A program made the translations under genes and the position numbers. Positions 3,513 to 29,482 of a stretch of DNA of 64,000 nucleotides are shown piece by piece. The stretch is taken from sequence record QB031382.1. One strand, given 5' to 3'. The notes below the pieces were generated by a model, which was given only the letters and a program-made list of their open reading frames with translations, made no database searches and was not told the DNA's origin. Within the stretch, counting starts at the first letter, position 1. Every line of letters begins with the position of its first letter. The DNA is from a phage.

Positions 3513-4277
3513 TTGAAATTCATCTACAAAGAACACTACCACAAAGGTGTTGTGTGGAGTCTATTTGACGGGTCTGGTGGTGCAGTTATTGACTGGGCAA
3601 AAGCTGGGTACCTGTGCCTGTGCTTTAATGCAGAAGGTGCTGACCACGGCAGTTATGCAGAGGTGATAACCGATCATCCAAATATTCACTATGTGGATTA
3701 TTGGATTGACCCATGGTTCCCTCAAGAAACTTTTTGCATGTATCCAGCTCCAGACTTTATTCTTGCATTTCCTCCGTGCACGCATTTAGCGGTATCAGGA
3801 GCTGCACACTTTAAGAAAAAGCTGGCTAAGGACCCACTGATCCAGATTAACGCTGTAAAGGATGCTCGGGTTGCAGAAGAGTTGGGAGAGATTTACGATT
3901 GCCCGTGGCATGTAGAGAATCCTGTGGGTGTTATGTCCACGCTGTGGCGCAAACCTGATTACCGTTTTCACCCTTCTGATTATGGCGGGTATTTACCGGA
4001 GGATGATGTAAACCCCTGGTTTCCTGAATTTATAGCTCCACGTGATGCCTATCCAAAAATAACTTGCGGCTGGATAGGTAATGGATTTATAATCCCGGTC
4101 ACAAAACCTGTCCCGCAAATAGTTGACGCGGTTAGCGGGTATTCCATGCAACACGCCAAGCTGGGGGGAAAGAGTGCAAGAACAAAGATGATTCGAAGCC
4201 TCACACCCCGTGGCTGGGCAAAAGCTGTATTCTTAGCAAACGAGCCTGCAGTAAGGAGCAGAATTAATGGGAAGTAA
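3513..4277 (+). CDS. C5-cytosine DNA methyltransferase-like protein (small)
   Basis: Motif I WSLFDGSGG, PC motif AFPPCTHLAVSGA, ENV-like HVENPVGV, motif X-like GNGFIIPV; TTG start after SD AGGAGA, since the tool start lies inside the terminator. Confidence 0.55.
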   Translation: MKFIYKEHYHKGVVWSLFDGSGGAVIDWAKAGYLCLCFNAEGADHGSYAEVITDHPNIHYVDYWIDPWFPQETFCMYPAPDFILAFPPCTHLAVSGAAHFKKKLAKDPLIQINAVKDARVAEELGEIYDCPWHVENPVGVMSTLWRKPDYRFHPSDYGGYLPEDDVNPWFPEFIAPRDAYPKITCGWIGNGFIIPVTKPVPQIVDAVSGYSMQHAKLGGKSARTKMIRSLTPRGWAKAVFLANEPAVRSRINGK

Positions 4278-6345
4278 ATTTATGGCATCTGCATACAACC
4301 GTTTCGGTGAGCCAAACCCGAAAGCAACTAAGTATAAAAGTGGGGGAAGTGTGAAACGAGACTATCGTGATGAAAAAGAAGTTGAAACTGTAGAGACTGT
4401 TTTAGAAAATACCAAAATTGTCCCCGTCCCACAACAAAATATCGGTCTGATGGCTGCACAATATTTTGGTGTGCGATCAGCATTATCCCAAGAAGATGGT
4501 GTGACAGTCACTGCAACATATTTCCCATATTACGACCGCTACGGAAATCTGTCCGGTTTCAAAAAGCGTGACTGGACGATTCCTAAAGAGCAAAGAGGCC
4601 ATTTCTCCGTTGTTGGCATAGTAAAGGCTAACTCTCAGATGTTTGGTCAAAAGCTGTGTGCATCTTCCAACAACCGTAAGCAGATTAACGTTTGTGAGGG
4701 AGAAGGTGATGTTATTGCAGCATGGCAGGCTGCATATCAGATACAAGTAAAAGGGATTCTCACCAACGCTAAAGCCCCGGCAAAGGTGAAACAGTGGGCT
4801 AAAGAGGTCCAGGACGGGATCGATGCAGTTATCAACGGTGGCGATCTGGCAGGAAAACCATGCCTGCCTTTTGTTGGAATTAACTGTGGATGTGCAAACG
4901 CAGTAGATACTTTTGCAAACAATGAGAAGTTTATCCGTAGCTATGGAACAGTTGTGCTGGCAATGGATAACGATGCAGCTAACGAGGTAGAGAAGCAAAA
5001 ACACGTCATTAAAGGTGTTGAGGCCACGCACAATATCGCAGCATTTTTGATGGCTGATAACGTTTACCACGTGGAATATCCTGGCGAGGTAAACGACCCT
5101 GATGGTGTAAAAGATATCCGTGACATGCTGAAGGCTAAAAAGCTGGAAGATATTGTAAACATGTTCCGGCATCCTGTTAAGTATGTGCCGGATGCTGTGT
5201 CGGATTTAGAAGACTTCTCTATCGAATCTTTGCGGAAAAAGACTTCCAACGGGGTAGATATCAGCGCAGAGTTCCCAAAACTGCAAAAAATGCTGAAAGG
5301 CTTGCACAAAGGGACACTCGTAATGCTTACAGGGCCATCAGGGGGCGGTAAAACAACTGTAGCTAAAAAACTGGAACATTGTATTGCAAGATACTTGATG
5401 GACCCGACATGCCCGAAGGCCGATGACTATGAAGAGGATGATCGTCTATGCATGATCCATCTTGAGGAGGACCCAGAGGAAGCAATTAACTCCTTGTATG
5501 CAAACCAGTTAGGGTTTGATGTTAAAGAGTTTGTTGAAGATCCTAGCCAGTTTTTAACTGATCAAGAACACGCAGAGATTCACCAATCATGGGCAAAAGC
5601 TGGAAAAATCAAAGTGTTCAAACATTTCGGATCTATTCCGGTGGACGAGTTGATTACCAAGCTTAAGCAAATGGTTTGCCTGTACCATTGCCGTTATATT
5701 GTGCTGGATCACCTGTCCATGGTAATTTCAGGGCTTAATGTTAAGGATGAGCGAAAAGAGCTGGACATGGCTATGACCCAACTGGCTGCGTTTTGTAAGC
5801 AGTTTAACGTGTTTATCCTAGTGATCGCTCACCTCAAACGTACAGAGATTGTGCCTCCTAAGGACAAGGATGGTAACCCGTTACCTTTCTGGTATCCTGT
5901 GCGAAAAGAGAATTTGCGAGGATCGGCTGGGCTTGAACAGTTGAGTTGGGTAGTCATAGGTGTTGAGGCTGAAGAAATGGTAGATCGTTCTCGTGGTCGT
6001 GTCCGTTTAGTAGGTCTTAAAAACCGTCCAGCAAAAACATTGGGTATTGCGGATACTTTGGTTATGGACCCACATACAGGTAAGTTCCATGATGCCAGTA
6101 ATTGGTACTGGGACAAAGAAATGCAGATGTTTACAGACGGAGAAGGTGGGGAGGTTGTTTGGAGACCTCAGGCCATGTTTGAGGACCAAGAGCATGCAGT
6201 TGTAGAAACACCTATGGGCAAGGTTGTAGCTGATAAGGTTGTAACTCCTACTATTAAGCCTGTTGACACGCAGGAAGACCTCCAGTACGATGATCCATCT
6301 TCTGATCCGGTCCCCGGTTTTGAAGATGATGAAACACCTTTTTAA
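4267..6345 (+). CDS. bifunctional DNA primase-helicase (TOPRIM + DnaB-like helicase)
   Basis: TOPRIM motifs CEGEGD and LAMDNDAANE; Walker A LTGPSGGGKTT; SD AAGGAG upstream. Confidence 0.8.
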   Translation: MGSKFMASAYNRFGEPNPKATKYKSGGSVKRDYRDEKEVETVETVLENTKIVPVPQQNIGLMAAQYFGVRSALSQEDGVTVTATYFPYYDRYGNLSGFKKRDWTIPKEQRGHFSVVGIVKANSQMFGQKLCASSNNRKQINVCEGEGDVIAAWQAAYQIQVKGILTNAKAPAKVKQWAKEVQDGIDAVINGGDLAGKPCLPFVGINCGCANAVDTFANNEKFIRSYGTVVLAMDNDAANEVEKQKHVIKGVEATHNIAAFLMADNVYHVEYPGEVNDPDGVKDIRDMLKAKKLEDIVNMFRHPVKYVPDAVSDLEDFSIESLRKKTSNGVDISAEFPKLQKMLKGLHKGTLVMLTGPSGGGKTTVAKKLEHCIARYLMDPTCPKADDYEEDDRLCMIHLEEDPEEAINSLYANQLGFDVKEFVEDPSQFLTDQEHAEIHQSWAKAGKIKVFKHFGSIPVDELITKLKQMVCLYHCRYIVLDHLSMVISGLNVKDERKELDMAMTQLAAFCKQFNVFILVIAHLKRTEIVPPKDKDGNPLPFWYPVRKENLRGSAGLEQLSWVVIGVEAEEMVDRSRGRVRLVGLKNRPAKTLGIADTLVMDPHTGKFHDASNWYWDKEMQMFTDGEGGEVVWRPQAMFEDQEHAVVETPMGKVVADKVVTPTIKPVDTQEDLQYDDPSSDPVPGFEDDETPF

Positions 6346-6403
6346 TGTTTAACAAAGAGTGGGAGGGGTAGTACAACCGCCTCCCCTTTAAGGAGAACTG
6401 TAT

Positions 6404-8827
6404 ATGAGCATGTGGTCGTTCGATTTTGAGTCATCCGGTTTGCTGGAAGACCCAGATCTTTATTATCACTGCGGTCTGTTTAAAGAGTTGAATAAGAACC
6501 GTTTTATGCTGTTCCTTCCTCTAAATGACCGCACACACTACTCCGAGGAGGATATAGAAAAGGCTAAGAACTTCATTCTGGCAAAGAAAACTCTTTATAA
6601 AGATTTTGAAGTTCGCATAGCAGATTTTTCGGAGTTGGAAGGTTGGCTTACAGGAAATTCTGACTGGTCACCAACAGCTTTGAACTGCCATAACTGCTAC
6701 AGTTATGACTTTATGCTGATGGAAAGATTATCCGGTATTCATTTTGATATGTTCCGTGATCCTAAATGCATGGGGACTATCAACGACCACCAGGTTAACC
6801 TGTTTGATACGTTGGCGATGAGCCGAATCTTATGGCCTGATCGCCCTTTACCAAAAGGTTGTCCTGACTCCGTATTCAACCCGGTTACTAAGAAAATGCA
6901 GCCTGTTGGTCCTCACGGCCTTATGGCATGGGGCTACGCCCTTGGTAACCAGAAAGTTCAAATTGATGACTGGCGCGATCTTCCGTTGTGGAAGTATGTG
7001 GATCGTGTATTCGAGGACGTTATCATCCAGGAGCTGCTCTGGAAAGAGCTGGTAGCGGAATCAAAAGGTGTATTCTACGGCAAATCTGACATGCAGAACT
7101 TTATGTACGATCCTGCCAAAGAGAAGCCGAAAGGGTTCAAGAAGATCACCTGGAAGAACGCATTGCGCCGGGGTATGCTGCAACACTTCCTGATGGAGCT
7201 GCAGGCCCGTCAGGGTGTGTATTTTGACATAGATGGGGCTATTGCTTTACGTGACCGTTGCGATGCGTGGATGAAAGAAATCGCTGATCGTGTTGAACCA
7301 CAACTACCTTTAAAAGAGCTGTCAATGTCTCAGCGGCCCAAGTTCCCTGAAAAGCCGTTTAACCAAGATGGGACAATCTCCAATAATGGTTGGAAATGGT
7401 TAAAAGATAAGCTTGGCTATCCTGTGGACATGAGCGCTTTAGAGTTCAAAGCCCCACCTAAGCGAGCATTTACCTCCACAGGGGATGTCAGTAAGATGGG
7501 GATAAAATGGTGTGAAGAGATGGGCTGTAAAGACCCTGATAAGATGGCTGATTTCTTGAGGGGCTATATTAAGGGCACTTCCACACCACAACCTTTACCT
7601 AAAGAGCTAATGGATCAGGCAATAAGTGATCTACAGCAGAAGCGAATGCCTGACTGCAAGATACCTATGAAAATCAGCAATCAGGACGACATTAAGCGAT
7701 ACCTGATTAGTGCTGGTTGGCTTCCGACAATGTGGAGAACTAAGGATGTAACTAAAGACAGCAAGAAGAAAGCTCTACCTGATGCAGATGTTGATGCACG
7801 AGTATATGCATATATGGACGAGCTTTTAGAGTCAGAGTATTGTGACCTGATTATCAACTTCTGGAACAAAACTGATGCTAAGTTCCAGACAACCGTGCAC
7901 AAGTTCCGAAGCTTTCCTAACTCCGAAAGGATTAAAAAGGAAGTATTCGGGAAAATACGTAGAAAAGCTAGGGCACTTATTACTTCTCCGCAACTGAAAG
8001 ATACGTTTGGACACCTATGCCCTAATCTTGAAAAATTGAACGGAGAGATGGCTAAAGATATCGTCTTGTGGTTATCATTGCGAAACCGCAGATCGGTACT
8101 TGATCCAATTAAGGAGGATAAGGTTGATACTGGTCTTCTTAATCACCCACGTTTGAAGATTGACCATAAGCTTCCTGCTAAAAGTTCTGGGTTAACAAAC
8201 ACTTCCCGACAGAAACACAGTATTTGTGCGAACATGCCTAAACCATCTCCTAAAGTGGTTATGGGTAAAGAGATGCGTAGTCTGTGGGGTGTTCCTCCGG
8301 GATACTTTGAGATCGGTATTGACGGGTCCAACTTAGAGCAGCTTATCGGGGCTTGGGGTGCCTTTGAGTTCGACAACGGCTTGTATTATGATGTTGTAAG
8401 TAACGGGGACGCACACCAAAACAATGCTGAGGCATATACAAAAGTAGCAGGCAGAGAGGTGTCTCGTAACGACGGTAAACCTATCACGTATGGGGTTATG
8501 TACGGGGCACAAAAAGATAAAGTTGCAGACATGCTGGATATCTCTCCAGAGTTGGGGCAAAGGGTAATCGATGCGCTTTGGGATGCCAACCCCGGTCTTA
8601 AGGGGCGTAAAGAGGATCTAGAGAAATTCTGGGAAGCAACAGGTAAGAAATTTATCTACTCTTTTGACGGTCATGCCATTTGGACCCGCTCTAAACACTC
8701 TTTGCTTAATGCATATCAGCAAAATGGCGGTGCCTCGTTGTGCGACTTGGTCGGAATCCTCATGCACCACCAAATGGTGAAGCGTGGATGGTATGATGAG
8801 GGTGTTCGTCGTATTATTTATTACCAT
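6404..8827 (+). CDS. DNA polymerase, family A, exon 1
   Basis: Exo I SFDFESSGL, motif A GIDGSNLEQL, motif B KPITYGVMYG; exon ends at the CAT (His) codon 8825-8827 before the intron. Confidence 0.85.
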
Positions 8828-9155
8828 AAATAACATTGTGGCTTCGTGCAGTGATGCACGTCGAAAACCTCTTTAATTGACGGGAAGGCTAAGTTGACTT
8901 TTACACCTAAACATGGTAAAAGCTCAATATGCTAATCCGCAGCGAAGCATCCGAGAGGATGAACGTTCAGAGACTATCGAAAGCATAGCTCCAACATAGT
9001 TTGGTGTGAAGAAGCGAGTAGAGTAGGCCAGCAAGTGCGGTCGAAATGAGAGGTGCCTTGGTAACAAGGCAGTGAGATAGTCCGATCCATACGGGAAACT
9101 GTATGGCTATGCACGTAATGGTGCGGGGTAGCTTAACGACCTACCTGAACTATTG
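8828..9155 (+). ncRNA. group I self-splicing intron (no ORF) in the DNA polymerase gene
   Basis: Core elements P AATTGACGGGAA (8875-8886), Q AATCCGCAGC (8934-8943), R GTTCAGAGACTA (8965-8976), S GAGATAGTCC (9074-9083); U before 5' splice site pairs with guide GUGG 8838-8841; G9155 precedes 3' splice site. Confidence 0.75.
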
Positions 9156-17184: not shown

Positions 17185-17479
17185 CAATCATTGCGCTGAT
17201 CATCTTGGTGGTGGTGTATGGATTTGTTATCCTGCCTATTCTTGAGACATTTAGTTTGTGTCGGTGTTGGAGAAAGGCTTACGGACCACAGCCGTGGAAA
17301 GACTGGCCTCATCTGTTACGCATAGCGTTCTCCTATGCCTATGATCACTCCAGCAGTGCATGCATAACTGGGTATCACGCCCACAACTGGAACTGGGAAG
17401 GGTTGGGGAGATGGAATGTTATAAAAACTATACCTCTACGCATGTACAAGCCTAAAAACAAAGATAGTTGATACTTGAA

Positions 17480-18060
17480 AATCCCTGGCACATCAAACAT
17501 AAGGAGGATTTCTAAAATGGATTTCCTCCTTTTGATATTTTACCTGGCCGGATATTTTAAAATTCTTAGAAAATCAGAAAATGGATCGAAAACTAAAATG
17601 GATTTTTTCAAGACAGGCACGATAAGCTGTGCTAATCATCCTATCGTTCGCACCGTACTTCAAATCACCGTTCCAGATTTTCCGCACACACTCTCACCCT
17701 TCTACCAGAACTTTCCCAACTTACCTTCGGCCTTTTATGACAATAAGTTAATTATTATCAGTAAGTTTTGATACATCTCTCTCAGTACTCGATCTGTTTT
17801 TCATTTCAAAGATTGGATTTTCTGAAAATTTTTCTCGATAAATTTTTCGGTACTCGATCTGTTTTTCGTTTTCTGAATCGGATTTTCTTGAAATTGGTCC
17901 AGCACCAGATCTAAAATTTTTGGGAACGAAAGCGATTTTTCGTTTTCAGAAATGGATTTTTAAAATTTCTATATGGGAATATTTTATGAGGTATTATTTT
18001 ATATAGAATTGTCACGGTAGGTAATTAGCATGCTAACTAAATTTATGAAATGCGAAAAGT
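17480..18060. repeat. AT-rich non-coding region with iteron-like direct repeats
   Basis: TGGATTTT at least six times; GTACTCGATCTGTTTTTC twice, 65 bp apart. Confidence 0.5.
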
Positions 18061-18102
18061 TCTCATTTAGAATTTTGAATGATAATCATTCTCGTTTGCA
18101 GA

Positions 18103-18131
18103 ATAACGGGCACCCCCGGTGATTGTCTCCC
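18103..18131. repeat. GC-rich 29-nt element, left copy of inverted pair
   Basis: ATAACGGGCACCCCCGGTGATTGTCTCCC; exact reverse complement at 26211-26239; degenerate direct copy near 18240-18275. Confidence 0.6.
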
Positions 18132-18640
18132 GGCCCCTACTGCCCCGGCTTGCTATTATAGTATCACACAGGACAAAGAAAGCAAGGAGTTTTTGCATAA
18201 ATTTTTAGACGATAATGATAATCGTTCTCATTTCATGCAGCGCCCATCCCCGGTGGTTGTCTCCCCCGTCACCGGTGCCTGCCGTCCTTTCGATATGTAT
18301 ATTGTGCCACCTGGCGGGGCCGCTGTCAACACTTTTCAAAAATTTTTTTCTAACCTGATGCACTAACCGCTGCAACCTGGCGGGGCCAGCCTGGCAGGAC
18401 CTAACTGACCAGGTGGGCCTATGCTATAGGATAGGTAACAATTGAAGAGGAGGTACAAAAAATGGAAGGTAATATGATCCCCTGGAAAATGTAGCTATTA
18501 ATGACGCTGAGGCTATCGCCCTGGTTGAAAAGGCTATGGCGGGAGCGTTGGAACATAAAGAAGAGTACGAAAAAATTATGGTTAACCTGGCAGGGTCGGC
18601 GGCTGAGGAATTTTGCCCAAAAAATAATTTTAACTAGTGG

Positions 18641-18669
18641 TTGACAGCTCGGACAGTTTTTGCTATTCT
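18641..18669 (+). promoter_or_regulatory. sigma70-like promoter
   Basis: TTGACA, 17-bp spacer, TATTCT. Confidence 0.45.
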
Positions 18670-18721
18670 TATCCTCGCAAGGTGAACAACACCACACTAA
18701 TTAACAGAGAGGATAAAAATC

Positions 18722-26139: not shown

Positions 26140-26210
26140 GATAATAAACAGGGCTTGCAATGGTCCTGTTTTTTGTTATACTTATCTCACGGGTGGCACC
26201 TGGCGACGGG

Positions 26211-26239
26211 GGGAGACAATCACCGGGGGTGCCCGTTAT
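26211..26239. repeat. GC-rich 29-nt element, right (inverted) copy
   Basis: Exact reverse complement of 18103-18131. Confidence 0.6.
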
Positions 26240-26258
26240 ATAAAAACTATAAAAACAG

Positions 26259-26287
26259 TTGACATCTGCCAGGTGGTTAGGTAACAT
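26259..26287 (+). promoter_or_regulatory. sigma70-like promoter
   Basis: TTGACA, 17-bp spacer, TAACAT. Confidence 0.45.
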
Positions 26288-26341
26288 TTATCTTGAAGGG
26301 GCAAAAGTGCCCACACAACAACCAGAAGAGAGGAAAACATT

Positions 26342-26614
26342 ATGTCAAGCTGGATTAATCAAAAAGTTGAATCACGTTTTAATGCTATCTGGGATCTCAT
26401 CGAAAAAGAGGACGGAACATCAAGCCCTTACCTCAATAATCTTGAATTCCATTTTGTGGAAGCGATGAACGCAGAACATGATCACAAAGGTGGCGCGGAT
26501 GAGTTCGCTCAAGGGTATGGCTTCAACAATGCCAACGAAATGATTGAAGCGGTTGTACTTCAGGCTGAGGAAGATTATCAATTAAAAACACTTGAATTTT
26601 GCCGCCGTAAGTAA
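26342..26614 (+). CDS. hypothetical protein
   Basis: SD AGAGAGGAA upstream. Confidence 0.5.
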   Translation: MSSWINQKVESRFNAIWDLIEKEDGTSSPYLNNLEFHFVEAMNAEHDHKGGADEFAQGYGFNNANEMIEAVVLQAEEDYQLKTLEFCRRK

Positions 26615-26978: not shown

Positions 26979-27731
26979 TGCTCTTTTCCTACCATAAACG
27001 GCCCTACCTGGCAAGTGGAATAATTGACGAGCCATTAATCCCGCACACTGTACAAATATACATATAAAATAACTATTGCATAATCTTTCATCTTGTGGTA
27101 GCAGGGTCATTTTTACACGTTTTTCCTTCCAAAAATGCACGTAATGCAGCTATTGCACAAAATTTAACCTGATGCACATTTTCAGCATACTGTCAACAAT
27201 TAAAAACCCTTATAAATCATACACTTACACAAACCAAAAAGCGTGTCCTACGTGAAAAATCGGGTGTAACTATAGCCGACAGATCTCAGAATCCACGTAC
27301 GATCACCATTCTATAGCCTGCTAAGTATTTATTCCAACCACAGAATAACGGAATAGTCAATACCTGTACAAAATAATTATTCGTATAAACTGCATAACAT
27401 AAATTTTCTCATGTGTAAACATTTTTCGTAAACAGTCCGAAATTGTCACGATAGGTTACTATAATCAGAGAAATCTTTAGTCGTCTAATGTTTACTGCAC
27501 ATAACTATACTGACTGGAATCATTAGATGACTAAGAGAAAGATAAGAAATAGTTAACAATGTAATTGTTTTACCTGTAACAATAAGGCAACTATGCAAAC
27601 GAATGTCATGGCGCGACGGAGTCGCGACATAATATAAAAGCAGTAACCATCACCCCCGTGATAGTTTATCTGCAAACTATTGATCAGATCATAGTTGCCT
27701 TAGATTTAGTTAATCATGACATAATAAGCAA

Positions 27732-27759
27732 GGCAACTATAGATCTGATAATAGTTGCC
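27732..27759. repeat. perfect palindrome
   Basis: GGCAACTAT-AGATCTGAT-AATAGTTGCC; half-sites recur nearby. Confidence 0.55.
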
Positions 27760-27789
27760 CTGCTTTTATATTATGTCATATATTATTAA

Positions 27790-27850
27790 CCTGTTAATTG
27801 TCAGCTTATTGGCTGTTAGCTTGTCAATTGTTAACTTGTTAATTGTTATC
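27790..27850. repeat. four tandem 15-bp iteron-like repeats
   Basis: CTGTTAATTGTCAGC / TTATTGGCTGTTAGC / TTGTCAATTGTTAAC / TTGTTAATTGTTATC. Confidence 0.55.
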
Positions 27851-29482
27851 ATGCAAACGAATGTCATGGCTTATCATCTTTGTGTAAACTGTCAGGGTGT
27901 AGACTATTCAAGGTGTAAATTATTCAGATGCAAACTATCCAGGCGTAAACAGTCTATGCGGGAACAATCTGCACGTGAACAATGAAACATGAAATAATAA
28001 CAGTCGTTATTGTATCGAAAGTGTATAAGGTGTCAGATTATGGCATATTGTGTGACATTGTGTCAGACAAGTTTTTCTCCTCTTTGTCAAGTGCTGCATG
28101 TAAAATTTACAAACTGGTATGGTAGCATTTTTGCGGCCCTGTTTACATTCAGGAGTGTATGTATAACCCTTGTTGTGTGGGCGTTTAGACGTCTGGACGG
28201 TCAGAAGTCTGCAGGTTAATATCTAATCTATTGGTCGCTAACTATATCCCCACAAATAATAAGAAATGCAATTGTTATATGCGTAAACAGTAACTCATGT
28301 TATCAATCCCTGTATGTATCGCCAGTGGTGCGCATAATGGGTATTATGTTAAATTGCCCGTAATGATAACGATTCTCACAATGATAGGTATTCTCATTCA
28401 CCCGCCCAGGATAGGTTGCAAATGTTGTGCCACTGTGTGAACGGCCTCGCCTATTAATTTGCCTCACTGCCCCGATATTTGAGAATTATTATAAGAATGA
28501 GAAGTATTCCCATTTCGTCCGCCTGGCAGCACTCCTGTAGGACAAGCACAAAATCGTGGCATAACTGTACCTGTTCAGATATTTCTGGCTGACTCTTCAG
28601 GTCTGTGTGGGAAAAGCCAACCTCTCCGGCGGCGGGGAGTGGGTCAATTAAAAAATTTACGTGGTGTATGAAGCGCTCTTCAGGTAAGGCAGGTATTATG
28701 GGATGAATCACTCTTCAGGTGATGATATTTGTAGGTGTGATATTTGCTGGAAAGCCAGATATGACGGGACTCCCGGCGGGGCAGGGGTAGTACAGACAGG
28801 GAAAATGTGGAGAATGTGGTGGGTAAATTGATCAAGCAGGTAGAGTATGGAATATGTTACAGGTATGTTAAATATGGAGGTAAGATATTTGTAAGATTTG
28901 TGTGTAAAATCAAAGACTTAAGTAGTGTTGTGGTATTTTCTATAAATAATTCAAGTTTAATAGGGAATATTTGCCTCTATCCACTTTGTATGGTAACTAT
29001 ATTCTAATTGAATTGGTTTACAAGTGTATATAAAGTATACAAATTAAAGATACAAGAAACCCCCCTCCCCCTTCGGCTACCATTCACCTTTTCCTCTGAC
29101 TGGTACTTAAACACTTATTCAGACTCTTCAGGTTATCACTCATATATCATATGGCAGTGACTGGTGTCCTCCGGCCCCTCTTTCGTCACCCGTCCGCTTC
29201 GCCATGCTAATGCCATAGCTAACTGTTCGGTTGTTCACCCTGTTCACTCAGGTGTATCTCCATACCCCTTCAAACCGAAGAGAACAGAAAACCCGAATTA
29301 CTCGGTAAAAGAAAAGAGAAGAACTTAATTTTATCAGGATAGGCAAGAATGTCAAGGCATGACTGCTCACTAAACAAGCAAACAGTCATGTGTGGGAGGT
29401 AAGTGATTGTGGTGGTAGGAAATTTAGTTGAAAGATGTGTTATAGGTGCTTCCAGCACTTTAGCCTGGCAGCTAATTGTGTG

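Follow-up and report, generated by a model that had tools for sequence, protein, structure and literature searches.

The DNA analyzed here, a 64-kb window (the term denotes the whole stretch of 64,000 nucleotides), comes from an rV5-like Vequintavirus, a phage of Escherichia coli whose nearest relative is FV3 (96.7% identity). Positions 17492–18430 (~950 bases) can be shown, at the level of sequence, to form a single gene-free, non-coding module in which a rightward terminator, three repeats in easily melted DNA, Fur boxes, GC-rich hairpins, and leftward sigma-70 promoters follow one another from left to right. This order of elements is common to five genera of Vequintavirinae (Vequintavirus, Mydovirus, Seunavirus, Certrevirus, and Henunavirus) and is kept in Phapecoctavirus (Stephanstirmvirinae) too, but the repeats of the latter are not homologous to those of Vequintavirinae. 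Among Vequintavirus, the region is more conserved than its flanking genes (identity 0.91–1.00 vs. 0.78–0.88). The compositional boundary to which the original prediction had pointed, a GC-rich stretch beside AT-rich DNA, is clearly present, with GC content rising from 0.29 at 17800–18100 to 0.50–0.52 at 18100–18400. The module does not appear to be host-derived, as its DNA has no match in 5,426 E. coli genomes; it has no homology to plasmid origins either, the sole match being the genome of a Vequintavirus listed among plasmids, and a loose three-part pattern of the module retrieved only unrelated contigs from IMG/VR. No tRNA or tmRNA was found within the 64-kb window, and our search of the accessible literature turned up neither Fur boxes nor such a module in rV5-like or related phages.

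The module begins with a rightward intrinsic terminator (17492–17545, plus strand; inverted repeat I19), which ends the upstream early operon and whose stem includes AAGGAGGA/TCCTCCTT, followed by TTTTGATATTTT. None of 200 shuffles is as stable as its RNA fold (−17.7 kcal/mol, z = −3.84), and identity in this segment is 0.87–0.99 among Vequintavirus. Between the terminator and the repeats lies a variable spacer (17620–17770), which shows the lowest conservation in the region (identity 0.62–0.79) and carries frame-breaking 1-nt and 2-nt indels across 12 Vequintavirus sequences. From the ORFs that have been annotated across the module (FV3_00183, rV5 ORF198/199, kps8_221, and PVP-SE1 gp202), one could suppose that the region is decayed coding sequence or, if its repeats arose by chance, that it has no function at all. 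Such a functionless reading, to which we attach a negligible probability, is already contradicted by the comparative data: the region is better conserved than the genes around it, its architecture is shared by two subfamilies, its 18-mer repeat lies far beyond chance (see below), and its reading frames are not conserved. Indeed, 1- and 2-nt indels disrupt the frame of FV3_00183/rV5 ORF199 in relatives, where ORF length from the annotated ATG at 17517 varies from 16 to 99 aa and no more than the first 30 codons are retained, and this ATG itself sits inside the loop of the strong terminator hairpin, so that coding sequence could be ruled out and the initial impression that the region holds no convincing ORF was confirmed. 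A 43-aa minus-strand ORF (18198–18067) is intact, but its changes are all non-synonymous, and it was likewise set aside.

Two repeated sequences had initially drawn attention to the region, an 18-mer said to occur twice, 65 bp apart, and a motif said to occur at least six times. The former is borne out, since GTACTCGATCTGTTTTTC has exactly two copies in the window, at 17785 and 17850, for a chance expectation of 0.04 even at 3 mismatches. The latter had been overcounted: TGGATTTT has three exact copies in the region (17599, 17814, and 17953), and its five copies in the whole window correspond to the chance level. When up to one mismatch is allowed, five plus-strand copies are found in 17518–17960 against ~0.3 expected (an estimate from the window-wide density), which indicates that the local clustering is real. 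Both 18-mers turn out to belong to a three-copy family of ~47 nt (17775, 17840, and 17914; spacings of 65 and 74 bp), that is, to three bipartite direct units on the plus strand with a core of ~40 bp. Unit 1 (17783–17823) consists of block A (GTACTCGATCTG), TTTTTC, and block C (TTGGATTTTCT); unit 2 (17848–17888) is the best conserved, with 0.93–0.96 identity among Vequintavirus; and unit 3 (17922–17962; identity 0.93–0.99) has a degenerate block A (GGGAACGAAAGCGA) and retains blocks B and C (TTTTTCGTTTTCAGAAATGGATTTTT). In all, 27 units from nine genomes align without gaps, with an offset from block A to block C fixed at 26 nt and a block C that depends on the lineage (TGGATTTT in some, CGTATTTT in others). 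Three units are present in eight of the nine genomes, POP18 having a fourth, and the distance from first to third core is 139–145 bp in all genomes with three units. Adjacent units, 65 and 74 bp apart in the window and 63–78 bp apart elsewhere, show no helical phasing, and their spacings are not multiples of three, so that the repeats cannot be coding.

The original prediction had interpreted these repeats as iterons next to AT-rich unwinding DNA. As in iteron origins (lambda ori, P1 oriR, F, R6K, and pSC101), the direct repeats of the module do adjoin an AT-rich zone and co-evolve within a lineage. However, iterons of 17–22 bp in helical phase have little in common with bipartite, unphased units of ~40 bp lying 63–78 bp apart, and the module is adjoined by neither an initiator gene nor DnaA boxes, so that the AT-rich neighbor stands but the classical iterons do not. 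Several direct repeats of protein-binding type at irregular spacing are also reminiscent of terminase-binding arrays, of which the R sites of lambda cosB are an example, and the module could on this ground be some other cis-acting DNA site, for example a pac site recognized by the small terminase, or one involved in phage-directed nucleoid organization. A pac site must exist somewhere in the genome, since Vequintavirus genomes are reported to be circularly permuted (PMC8407724), for which reason the start points of the relatives' records were dropped as a hint at genome ends. We nevertheless consider such a cis-acting site highly improbable here: the module is located among early genes, at a great distance from those of the terminase (as inferred from the rV5 gene map), shows nothing that would link it to packaging, and is not a place where the ends of the relatives' records cluster.

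The DNA in which the repeats are embedded is among the most easily melted of the window. By nearest-neighbor calculation, the least stable 100 bp of the region (17951–18050; GC 0.23) rank second among all 100-bp segments of the 64 kb (duplex free energy z = 3.82), and 17743–18042 ranks second among those of 300 bp (z = 3.78); a 12-nt palindrome, TTAGCATGCTAA, lies inside the former (18025–18036). This arrangement recalls the unwinding element of E. coli oriC, with its three AT-rich 13-mers GATCTnTTnTTTT, in that the module has three T-rich repeats, two of which start with GATCTGTTTTT, and that five loose matches to the 13-mer occur in 17791–18000 against ~0.1 expected (estimate). The evidence is weak; there are 2 mismatches in every match, and the units of the module are 65–74 bp apart, whereas the 13-mers are adjacent. 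GATC, moreover, is not universal: its three sites in the module form no hotspot, and it is missing from the repeats of Hena1 and phiWec181, so that a GATC/Dam cluster was dropped for want of enrichment and of conservation in all genera. DnaA boxes (TTWTNCACA) are absent from 17–19 kb, for a total of 6 in the window against 8.9 expected.

Next to this AT-rich zone, we identified putative operators of the host iron regulator Fur. Fur box 0 (18049–18067; AATGCGAAAAGTTCTCATT) is degenerate, with 3 mismatches to the palindromic Fur 19-mer, and lies 29 bp upstream of box 1 (18078–18096; AATGATAATCATTCTCGTT), which, like box 2 (18214–18232; AATGATAATCGTTCTCATT), has a single mismatch. Chance is a poor explanation for these sites, given that AATGAKAATCATTCTCATT is found with 1 mismatch at 18078 and 18214 (7 strand hits vs. 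0.09 expected) and that 18211–18229 has 2 mismatches to the E. coli Fur consensus GATAATGATAATCATTATC, for which 0.01 matches are expected. The segment of box 1 is conserved at 1.00 among Vequintavirus and is the sole part of the module that blastn detects in distant genera. The exact 19-mer is present in more than 120 bacterial genomes, in which it precedes iron-uptake genes (the idealized form lies upstream of feoA, a TonB-dependent receptor, and bfd); its adjoining genes include a FeoA cluster (n = 6, two Pfam-confirmed), along with clusters that we take to be TonB-dependent receptor-like (9; judged from a representative), FTR1-like, Fur-family, and Bfd-like. The box is thus a general bacterial Fur box, and the idea of a phage-encoded binder was rejected, no protein being common to the window and to the unrelated viral contigs that bear the box.

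The module shares its 19-bp palindromic box with enterobacterial Fur-repressed promoters such as those of iucA (aerobactin) and ryhB and, as at iucA, the boxes are in tandem, one of them lying between −35-like and −10-like hexamers. More precisely, box 1 fills the 18-nt spacer of a candidate rightward promoter formed by TTGAAT (18075–18080) and CAGAAT (18099–18104), which scores 8/12 and whose hexamers are found at an equal offset in six of 10 genomes. Unlike iucA and ryhB, the boxes here are carried by a virulent phage, number up to seven at a 29-bp period, lie downstream of strong counter-directed promoters, and have no iron-related gene downstream. Their number, from one to seven per genome with this regular period, exceeds what one promoter needs and raises the question of a decoy, whereby box arrays would titrate host Fur as phage DNA multiplies and so derepress host iron uptake, the iron would serve iron-dependent phage enzymes, and the repeats would be independent of the boxes, consisting of DNA that is curved or bound by nucleoid proteins. 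An established assay, FURTA, relies on the titration of Fur by multicopy boxes, a further cluster of boxes occurs at 28362–28514, and the boxes, at 0–1 mismatch from the idealized palindrome, are closer to it than most natural operators. A decoy seems improbable to us all the same, because PVP-SE1 and Hena1 have one box each within the stretch examined and because the position of the boxes is fixed relative to the hairpin and promoters, which suggests local regulation.

The hairpins and promoters in question occupy the GC-rich half of the module. Hairpin hp1 (18107–18148, minus strand) begins at the predicted start site of promoter PL1 and exposes a loop, GAGACAAUCACC, that is nearly invariant in both subfamilies; hp2 (18237–18283, minus strand) is its duplicate (CCGGTGGTTGTCTCC; direct repeat D5), and a third copy, at 26.2 kb, is preceded by a promoter that would transcribe it in the same sense, with no repeats there. 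The proposed pairing register is respected in 73.9% of cells, against 34–48% when the register is slid, and folding energy gives a mixed answer as to the strand. As read from its hexamers, PL1 (18158–18185, minus strand; TTGCTT, 16 nt, TACTAT, with a TG upstream of the −10) is weak in Vequintavirus (7/12) and has a counterpart scoring 9–10 of 12 at +50 to +53 from the hairpin in six genomes of other genera. PL2 (18301–18329, minus strand; TTGACA, a GC-rich spacer of 17 nt, CACAAT, and a TG) scores 10/12, and no other minus-strand promoter in 1–27 kb has an exact TTGACA, against 27 promoters on the plus strand; every one of the 10 genomes compared has a counterpart (9–11 of 12), located +194 to +220 from the hairpin. 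Both promoters hold their positions in 10 genomes despite changes in the intervening sequence, and both oppose the surrounding gene block, pointing through the hairpin and the Fur boxes into the repeats. Taken as predictions, both these promoters and the Fur boxes have good support. At the right edge, a GC-rich remnant of a rightward promoter region (18371–18430, plus strand; direct repeat D10) contains a second TGCAACCTGGCGGGGCC copy, and an alignment of 12 relatives shows that the segment providing TTGCAA, 17 nt, and TATAGG upstream of the next gene in other relatives is incomplete both in the window and in FV3.

The GC-rich structured elements that had been advanced as a sign of an origin are therefore real, but they consist of Fur boxes, hairpins, and GC-rich promoter spacers, and as such they point at least as much to transcriptional control. 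Fur boxes are typical of regulated promoters, and we know of no replication origin that carries them. On this basis, the module might be an iron-responsive non-coding RNA or antisense locus that plays no part in replication and tunes neighboring early genes by iron: PL2 and PL1 would give rise to leftward RNAs whose 5′ end is structured, their antisense partner would come from the rightward promoter under Fur control, and the AT-rich repeats would be signals for termination or processing, or sites for a phage transcription factor. The exact fit of box 1, a classical promoter operator, within the TTGAAT–CAGAAT spacer agrees with this proposal, as do the candidate promoters that converge ~45 bp apart around the hairpin, the recurrence of this hairpin behind the 26.2-kb promoter, and, in other genera, an additional conserved GC-rich element of ~130 nt directly behind PL2, followed by a small leftward gene (DUF7170). 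Nonetheless, Rfam 15 yielded no covariance-model match at E up to 1 in 15–21 kb of the window and just two chance-level matches at four loci in other genera; covariation in the hairpin is not significant, though its pairing is register-specific; shuffled versions of hp1 are as stable as hp1 itself (z = −0.18, compared with −2.72 for hp2); and no −10-like hexamer follows box 2. An RNA locus also leaves unexplained why three 40-bp repeats with a fixed internal geometry are found in eight of nine Vequintavirinae-type genomes and why they are placed in very easily melted DNA, and we regard it as the main rival of an origin, somewhat less probable than the latter.

Our preferred interpretation is that of a candidate replication origin, which we find plausible, and the replication genes of the phage suggest which kind of origin to expect. 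A DnaB_C/AAA_25 protein (4267–6345), probably a primase-helicase, and a DNA_pol_A protein (6404–8833; E = 1.5e-6, yet under the Pfam cut-off) indicate that the predicted replisome is of T7 type, with a DnaB-like helicase and a family A polymerase. T7 itself initiates at promoters followed by AT-rich DNA, its primary origin being made of promoters phi1.1A and phi1.1B and then an AT-rich stretch, and T4 oriF(uvsY) and oriG(34) combine a promoter with an unwinding element downstream, where an R-loop forms. Here too, at the level of sequence, two tandem promoters face nearby DNA that is among the most easily melted, PL2 and PL1 aiming leftward into 17743–18106, and an initiator protein is no more evident than in T7. 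Unlike in T7 and T4, the promoters are those of host sigma-70, the AT-rich DNA is separated from them by a structured leader and Fur boxes, and it contains three conserved 40-bp repeats. From these likenesses, we infer, with a probability of roughly 40%, that the module may be a transcription-activated origin of the T7/T4 oriF type gated by Fur.

If so, transcription by host RNA polymerase from PL2 and PL1 would melt the AT-rich repeat zone or prime synthesis there, and the repeats themselves would serve to bind a phage protein or to position the helicase. Fur-Fe2+ sitting between the promoters and the repeats would act as a gate on initiation, thereby coupling phage replication to iron supply. 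Gating could operate in two ways, Fur acting either as a roadblock or as a repressor of the rightward promoter that encloses a box. As in ColE1, the RNA made from this promoter would be antisense to the hairpin at the 5′ end of the leftward RNA. The parallel with ColE1 RNA II/RNA I, and with IS10 RNA-IN/RNA-OUT, lies in candidate convergent promoters ~45 bp apart whose predicted RNAs would have complementary hairpin-forming 5′ ends, the longer one heading toward the AT-rich zone. Unlike for ColE1, the transcripts of the module are predictions, its rightward promoter scores 8/12, and control by Fur has no ColE1 counterpart. Should these features be generalized, Vequintavirinae and Stephanstirmvirinae, a large set of virulent phages of enterobacteria, might sense host iron through Fur-box arrays placed between opposing promoters and a melting zone with repeats, with Fur-Fe2+ licensing the start of replication by a ColE1-like RNA pair or by a roadblock, which we deem unlikely in this extended form.

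The original proposal of a candidate origin thus gains from the conserved non-coding repeats, the low duplex stability, the inward promoters, and the T7-type replisome, and loses from the absence of DnaA boxes and of an adjacent initiator gene, as well as from a competitor elsewhere in the window. The genes that flank the module include none resembling an initiator or a DNA-binding protein in any genus examined; an initiator could still be encoded at a distance. Among the flanking proteins of four genera, an HNH endonuclease and a NADAR protein are the only ones with a Pfam or PHROG function. The competitor, a second non-coding region at 27.1–29.4 kb, has 15-nt tandem repeats and three further Fur boxes, contains the DNA of lowest stability in the window, and is itself an origin candidate. 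GC skew reflects the direction of transcription only, the cumulative maximum at ~29–30 kb corresponding to the strand switch and the plateau at 17–23 kb to a property of the gene block. The rV5 genome paper, in which an origin was sought by means of skew, similarly reported that each change of skew coincided with a change in transcription direction.

Phages related to rV5 and phAPEC8 are common in therapy and biocontrol collections, and a module of host Fur boxes would, if the proposed gating is true, make for a strictly lytic phage that senses iron. Since gut, urine, blood, and laboratory broth offer markedly different iron conditions, efficacy and burst size could be affected. The module also delimits a fragment that can be used in engineering and in tests of origin function. 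Finally, several of the “hypothetical proteins” annotated over it are spurious, and the annotations of typing phage 5 and V18 leave ~1015 bp without genes at this place.

The window comes from a Vequintavirus, an rV5-like myovirus: over the interval 17300-18700 it shares 96.7% identity with phage FV3 and 87.6% with rV5, and 122 phage records matched in a near-mode search. This interval sits within a block of about 27 kb of small rightward genes, locally rV5 ORFs 200 to 196 (reverse strand in the rV5 record), that is driven by many predicted sigma-70 promoters (27 plus-strand candidates scoring at least 10/12 in 1-27 kb). A DNA methylase gene is found at 921-2249, and 4267-8833, upstream of the region considered here, encodes a DnaB-like helicase that is probably of the primase-helicase type together with a family A DNA polymerase, a pair that constitutes a T7-type replisome. 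The absence of a convincing ORF, as the original prediction had it, is confirmed: two sets of annotators left about 1015 bp empty here, and an alignment of 12 Vequintavirus sequences shows the FV3_00183 / rV5 ORF199 frame to be disrupted: 7 relatives are one nucleotide short in the T run at 17603, and rV5 has a 2-nt deletion. Translations from ATG 17517 vary from 16 to 99 aa and have only their first 30 residues in common. This ATG and its "Shine-Dalgarno" AAGGAGG fall within a strong hairpin (fold z = -3.84; none of 200 shuffles equally stable) followed by a T run, and we take this structure (17492-17545) to be the terminator of the upstream operon.

Downstream of this putative terminator, the 18-mer GTACTCGATCTGTTTTTC, reported as occurring twice 65 bp apart, is indeed present exactly only at 17785 and 17850 (0.04 expected by chance), and its copies are two members of a longer three-copy unit at 17775, 17840 and 17914 (spacings of 65 and 74 bp). 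As for TGGATTTT, the local cluster stands but the announced count of at least six does not: there are three exact copies in the region and five across the window, which is chance level, while tolerating one mismatch yields five plus-strand copies within 17518-17960 against an estimated 0.3 or so expected. In a gap-free alignment of 28 units of about 40 bp from nine genomes (17783-17823, 17848-17888 and 17922-17962 in the window), the consensus reads GGKWCTCGATCK, two bases, TTTTC, about ten bases and A(A/T)CG(T/G)ATTTT, with a constant 26-nt offset from first to last block. Eight of the nine genomes carry three units, with 139-145 bp from core 1 to core 3, and POP18 carries four; neighbouring units lie 63-78 bp apart. 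A repeat within a protein is ruled out by the broken frames and by distances between units that are not divisible by three. The last block depends on the lineage: Vequintavirus and Henunavirus have TGGATTTT, the other lineages CGTATT. Such a directional bipartite motif, with its fixed geometry and lineage-specific changes, is what one would expect where a DNA-binding protein recognises a specific sequence, a role that we infer for the repeats; no candidate for the protein binding them was found. That the region is a packaging or other cis site is very improbable. Between units 1 and 2, TCGATAAATT at 17835-17844, whose place is taken by GAAAAAATTTTT in other genera, is a candidate copy of the published high-affinity H-NS nucleation motif.

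The predicted juxtaposition of AT-rich and GC-rich DNA also holds (GC of 0.29 at 17800-18100 and 0.50-0.52 at 18100-18400). By nearest-neighbour duplex energy, 17951-18050 and 17743-18042 are the second least stable 100-bp and 300-bp windows of the 64 kb (z = 3.82 and 3.78), the first rank at both sizes going to 28.85-29.15 kb. The GC-rich structured elements exist as well, and turn out to be Fur boxes, hairpins and the GC-rich promoter spacers typical of this phage group. The 19-bp site 18211-18229 has two mismatches to the E. coli Fur consensus, and 18078-18096 and 18214-18232 each have one to AATGAKAATCATTCTCATT, with a weaker copy at 18049. The exact 19-mer AATGAGAATCATTCTCATT is found in more than 120 bacterial genomes from many phyla, where its clustered neighbours include FeoA (two examples Pfam-confirmed) and, by our own reading, proteins resembling TonB-dependent receptors, FTR1-type permeases, Fur-family regulators and Bfd. 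That this 19-bp palindrome is a host Fur box is well supported. Moreover, the identical box is present in unrelated viral contigs that have no protein in common with this phage, so its binder would be a host factor. The phage boxes are arrayed at a very regular 29-bp period; that the array acts as a Fur decoy is unlikely. The unrelated contigs with a perfect box include L008, L009, L013 and L018 of IMG/VR: L008 has three tandem boxes (30-bp period) upstream of a consensus promoter, L013 one adjoining two TGTGGATAA DnaA boxes, and L018 one adjoining iteron-like repeats. It may be that Fur boxes are more widespread where phages regulate transcription or start replication.

Two predicted promoters point leftward. 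PL2 (18329 to 18301; TTGACA, 17 nt, CACAAT, with TG; 10/12) is the sole promoter with an exact TTGACA running against the genes in 1-27 kb, and a leftward equivalent scoring 9-11/12 lies 194-220 nt right of the hairpin in all 10 genomes compared. PL1 (18158-18185) lies at +50 to +53 from the hairpin in six genomes (score 9-10), and is weaker in Vequintavirus and Phapecoctavirus (TTGCTT, 16 nt, TACTAT or TATTCT). Hexamers and distances persist while spacers differ between genera, which argues for real promoters, a conclusion that we regard as well supported by this comparison. The predicted PL1 start site coincides with the beginning of the GC-rich hairpin (18107-18148), whose loop, GAGACAAUCACC, is nearly invariant and whose pairing is register-specific (73.9% of cells pair in the proposed register vs 34-48% when slid), with no significant covariation. 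A second copy (18237-18283) lies behind PL2 in Vequintavirus, and a third at 26.2 kb (26146-26290; CCGGTGATTGTCTCC, minus strand, 26212-26226), with neither Fur box nor repeats nearby, is located between a terminator, a TTGCAA promoter and a second promoter (TTGACA, 17 nt, TAACAT) before the gene at 26342. This third copy is preceded, in the same RNA sense, by the plus-strand promoter TTGCAA, 16 nt, TATACT, which favours a leftward sense for the hairpin of the main module. The Fur box at 18078 fills the 18-nt spacer of a candidate rightward promoter (TTGAAT 18075, CAGAAT 18099; 8/12; equal offset in 6 of 10 genomes), whose transcript would run antisense to the hairpin. An iron-responsive non-coding RNA or antisense locus would account for the Fur boxes and convergent promoters, but it leaves the repeats and the melting profile unexplained, and we consider it possible, if somewhat improbable.

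In sensitive blastn searches, 18046-18133 is the only part detectable in distant phages, with matches in 202 records, including Klebsiella, Salmonella, Pectobacterium, Cronobacter and Erwinia phages. The distant loci keep the order of three AT-rich repeats, one to seven copies of the 19-bp palindrome, GC-rich hairpin and leftward promoters, as seen in Mydovirus (KpS8), Seunavirus (PVP-SE1, KE23), Certrevirus (F4M1E, and POP18, grouped there by sequence), Henunavirus (Hena1), an unclassified 146-kb contig and, with unrelated repeats, Phapecoctavirus (subfamily Stephanstirmvirinae). Within Vequintavirus, identity is higher in the repeats (0.91-0.99) and in 18040-18340 (0.92-1.00) than in the flanking genes (0.78-0.88), and it is lowest in 17620-17770 (0.62-0.79); that the module is decayed sequence is barely conceivable. 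Between PL1 and PL2, the non-Vequintavirus genera share a highly conserved GC-rich element of about 130 nt (CTTTACAAnTCTTTACAAA .. GAACTACCGGCGATCCACCTTCC .. GTTAGCCCCGCCTTTTCGCCGTGGGGTGGCG; relatives' loci L003 2600-2810, L004 2590-2800, and L117, L118, L119, L120 and L121 about 1620-1800), absent from the window and without a match in Rfam, that is likely a structured RNA. Some relatives have free-standing extra genes inserted directly beside the module (L004 1393-1980; locus L115 461-1105; match H60): PVP-SE1 gp204 is an HNH endonuclease (PHROG), K23PH08C2 has an annotated HNH endonuclease under the match, and 241Ecol014PP has an additional 214-aa gene. For the endonucleases, an explanation would be homing into a target that is so strongly conserved.

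Transcription from PL2 and PL1 would enter a stretch shielded from rightward transcription by the terminator at 17492-17545, and would pass the Fur boxes before meeting the poorly stable DNA that carries the three repeats. The T7 primary origin consists of two promoters followed by AT-rich DNA, and T4 oriF and oriG of a promoter followed by an unwinding element, a layout matched by the module's promoters leading into unstable DNA. Given this layout, the T7-type replisome and the lack of a visible initiator, we rank first a transcription-activated origin gated by Fur, with a probability of roughly 40%; both the origin role and the gating are tentative. Of the original proposal of an origin built on AT-rich repeats, the repeats and the unstable DNA are real, whereas the repeat spacing has no helical phasing, no DnaA boxes occur in 17-19 kb and no initiator gene adjoins the module among the flanking proteins checked. 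These absences, together with the lack of GATC enrichment, a GC skew uninformative on the origin and a second region at 27.1-29.4 kb, weaken the origin reading. A literature search returned no account of Fur boxes, such a module or a mapped origin in these phages; all the parts are of known kinds, and what seems to be new is finding them combined in virulent phages.

The second non-coding region (27140-29400), larger than the first, borders a convergent strand switch and the peak of the cumulative GC skew. It contains nested inverted repeats (27600-27790), TGTTAAnTTGTCA repeats, about five 15-16-nt tandem repeats GTGTAAACTNTYCAGG (27882-27950), three further Fur boxes (28362, 28380 and 28496, spanning 28362-28514), four counter-directed (minus-strand) promoters and the least stable DNA of the window (28852-29151). 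Its counterpart in rV5 is 104096-106249, which carries no annotation and is probably what the rV5 paper shows as an unannotated "non-coding" box. Conservation of this region at the DNA level is confined to Vequintavirus.

Right of the module, the window reads CCCC at 18478-18479, vs CCCCC in FV3 and most other relatives, which shifts the frame of the FV3_00181 homologue (ATG 18463) after 11 codons and reflects either a genuine mutation or an error in sequencing the homopolymer; several further single-base homopolymer differences from FV3 occur in 18.4-21.5 kb. The segment that supplies a rightward promoter (TTGCAA, 17 nt, TATAGG) for the next gene in other Vequintavirus sequences is incomplete in the window and in FV3: aligned with its relatives, the window is short of some 29-37 nt after 18411, and FV3 additionally lacks 19 nt equivalent to 18393-18411. 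Among the database records, CP057073.1 (PLSDB), a 137.5-kb "non-mobilizable plasmid" from a cattle E. coli culture with 88.8% identity to the region, is evidently the genome of a Vequintavirus that was deposited under a plasmid label. Finally, 16-19 "Campylobacter phage" records (MG0656xx) show 86-90% identity to this E. coli phage over both non-coding regions, and their host label, Campylobacter jejuni, looks doubtful.
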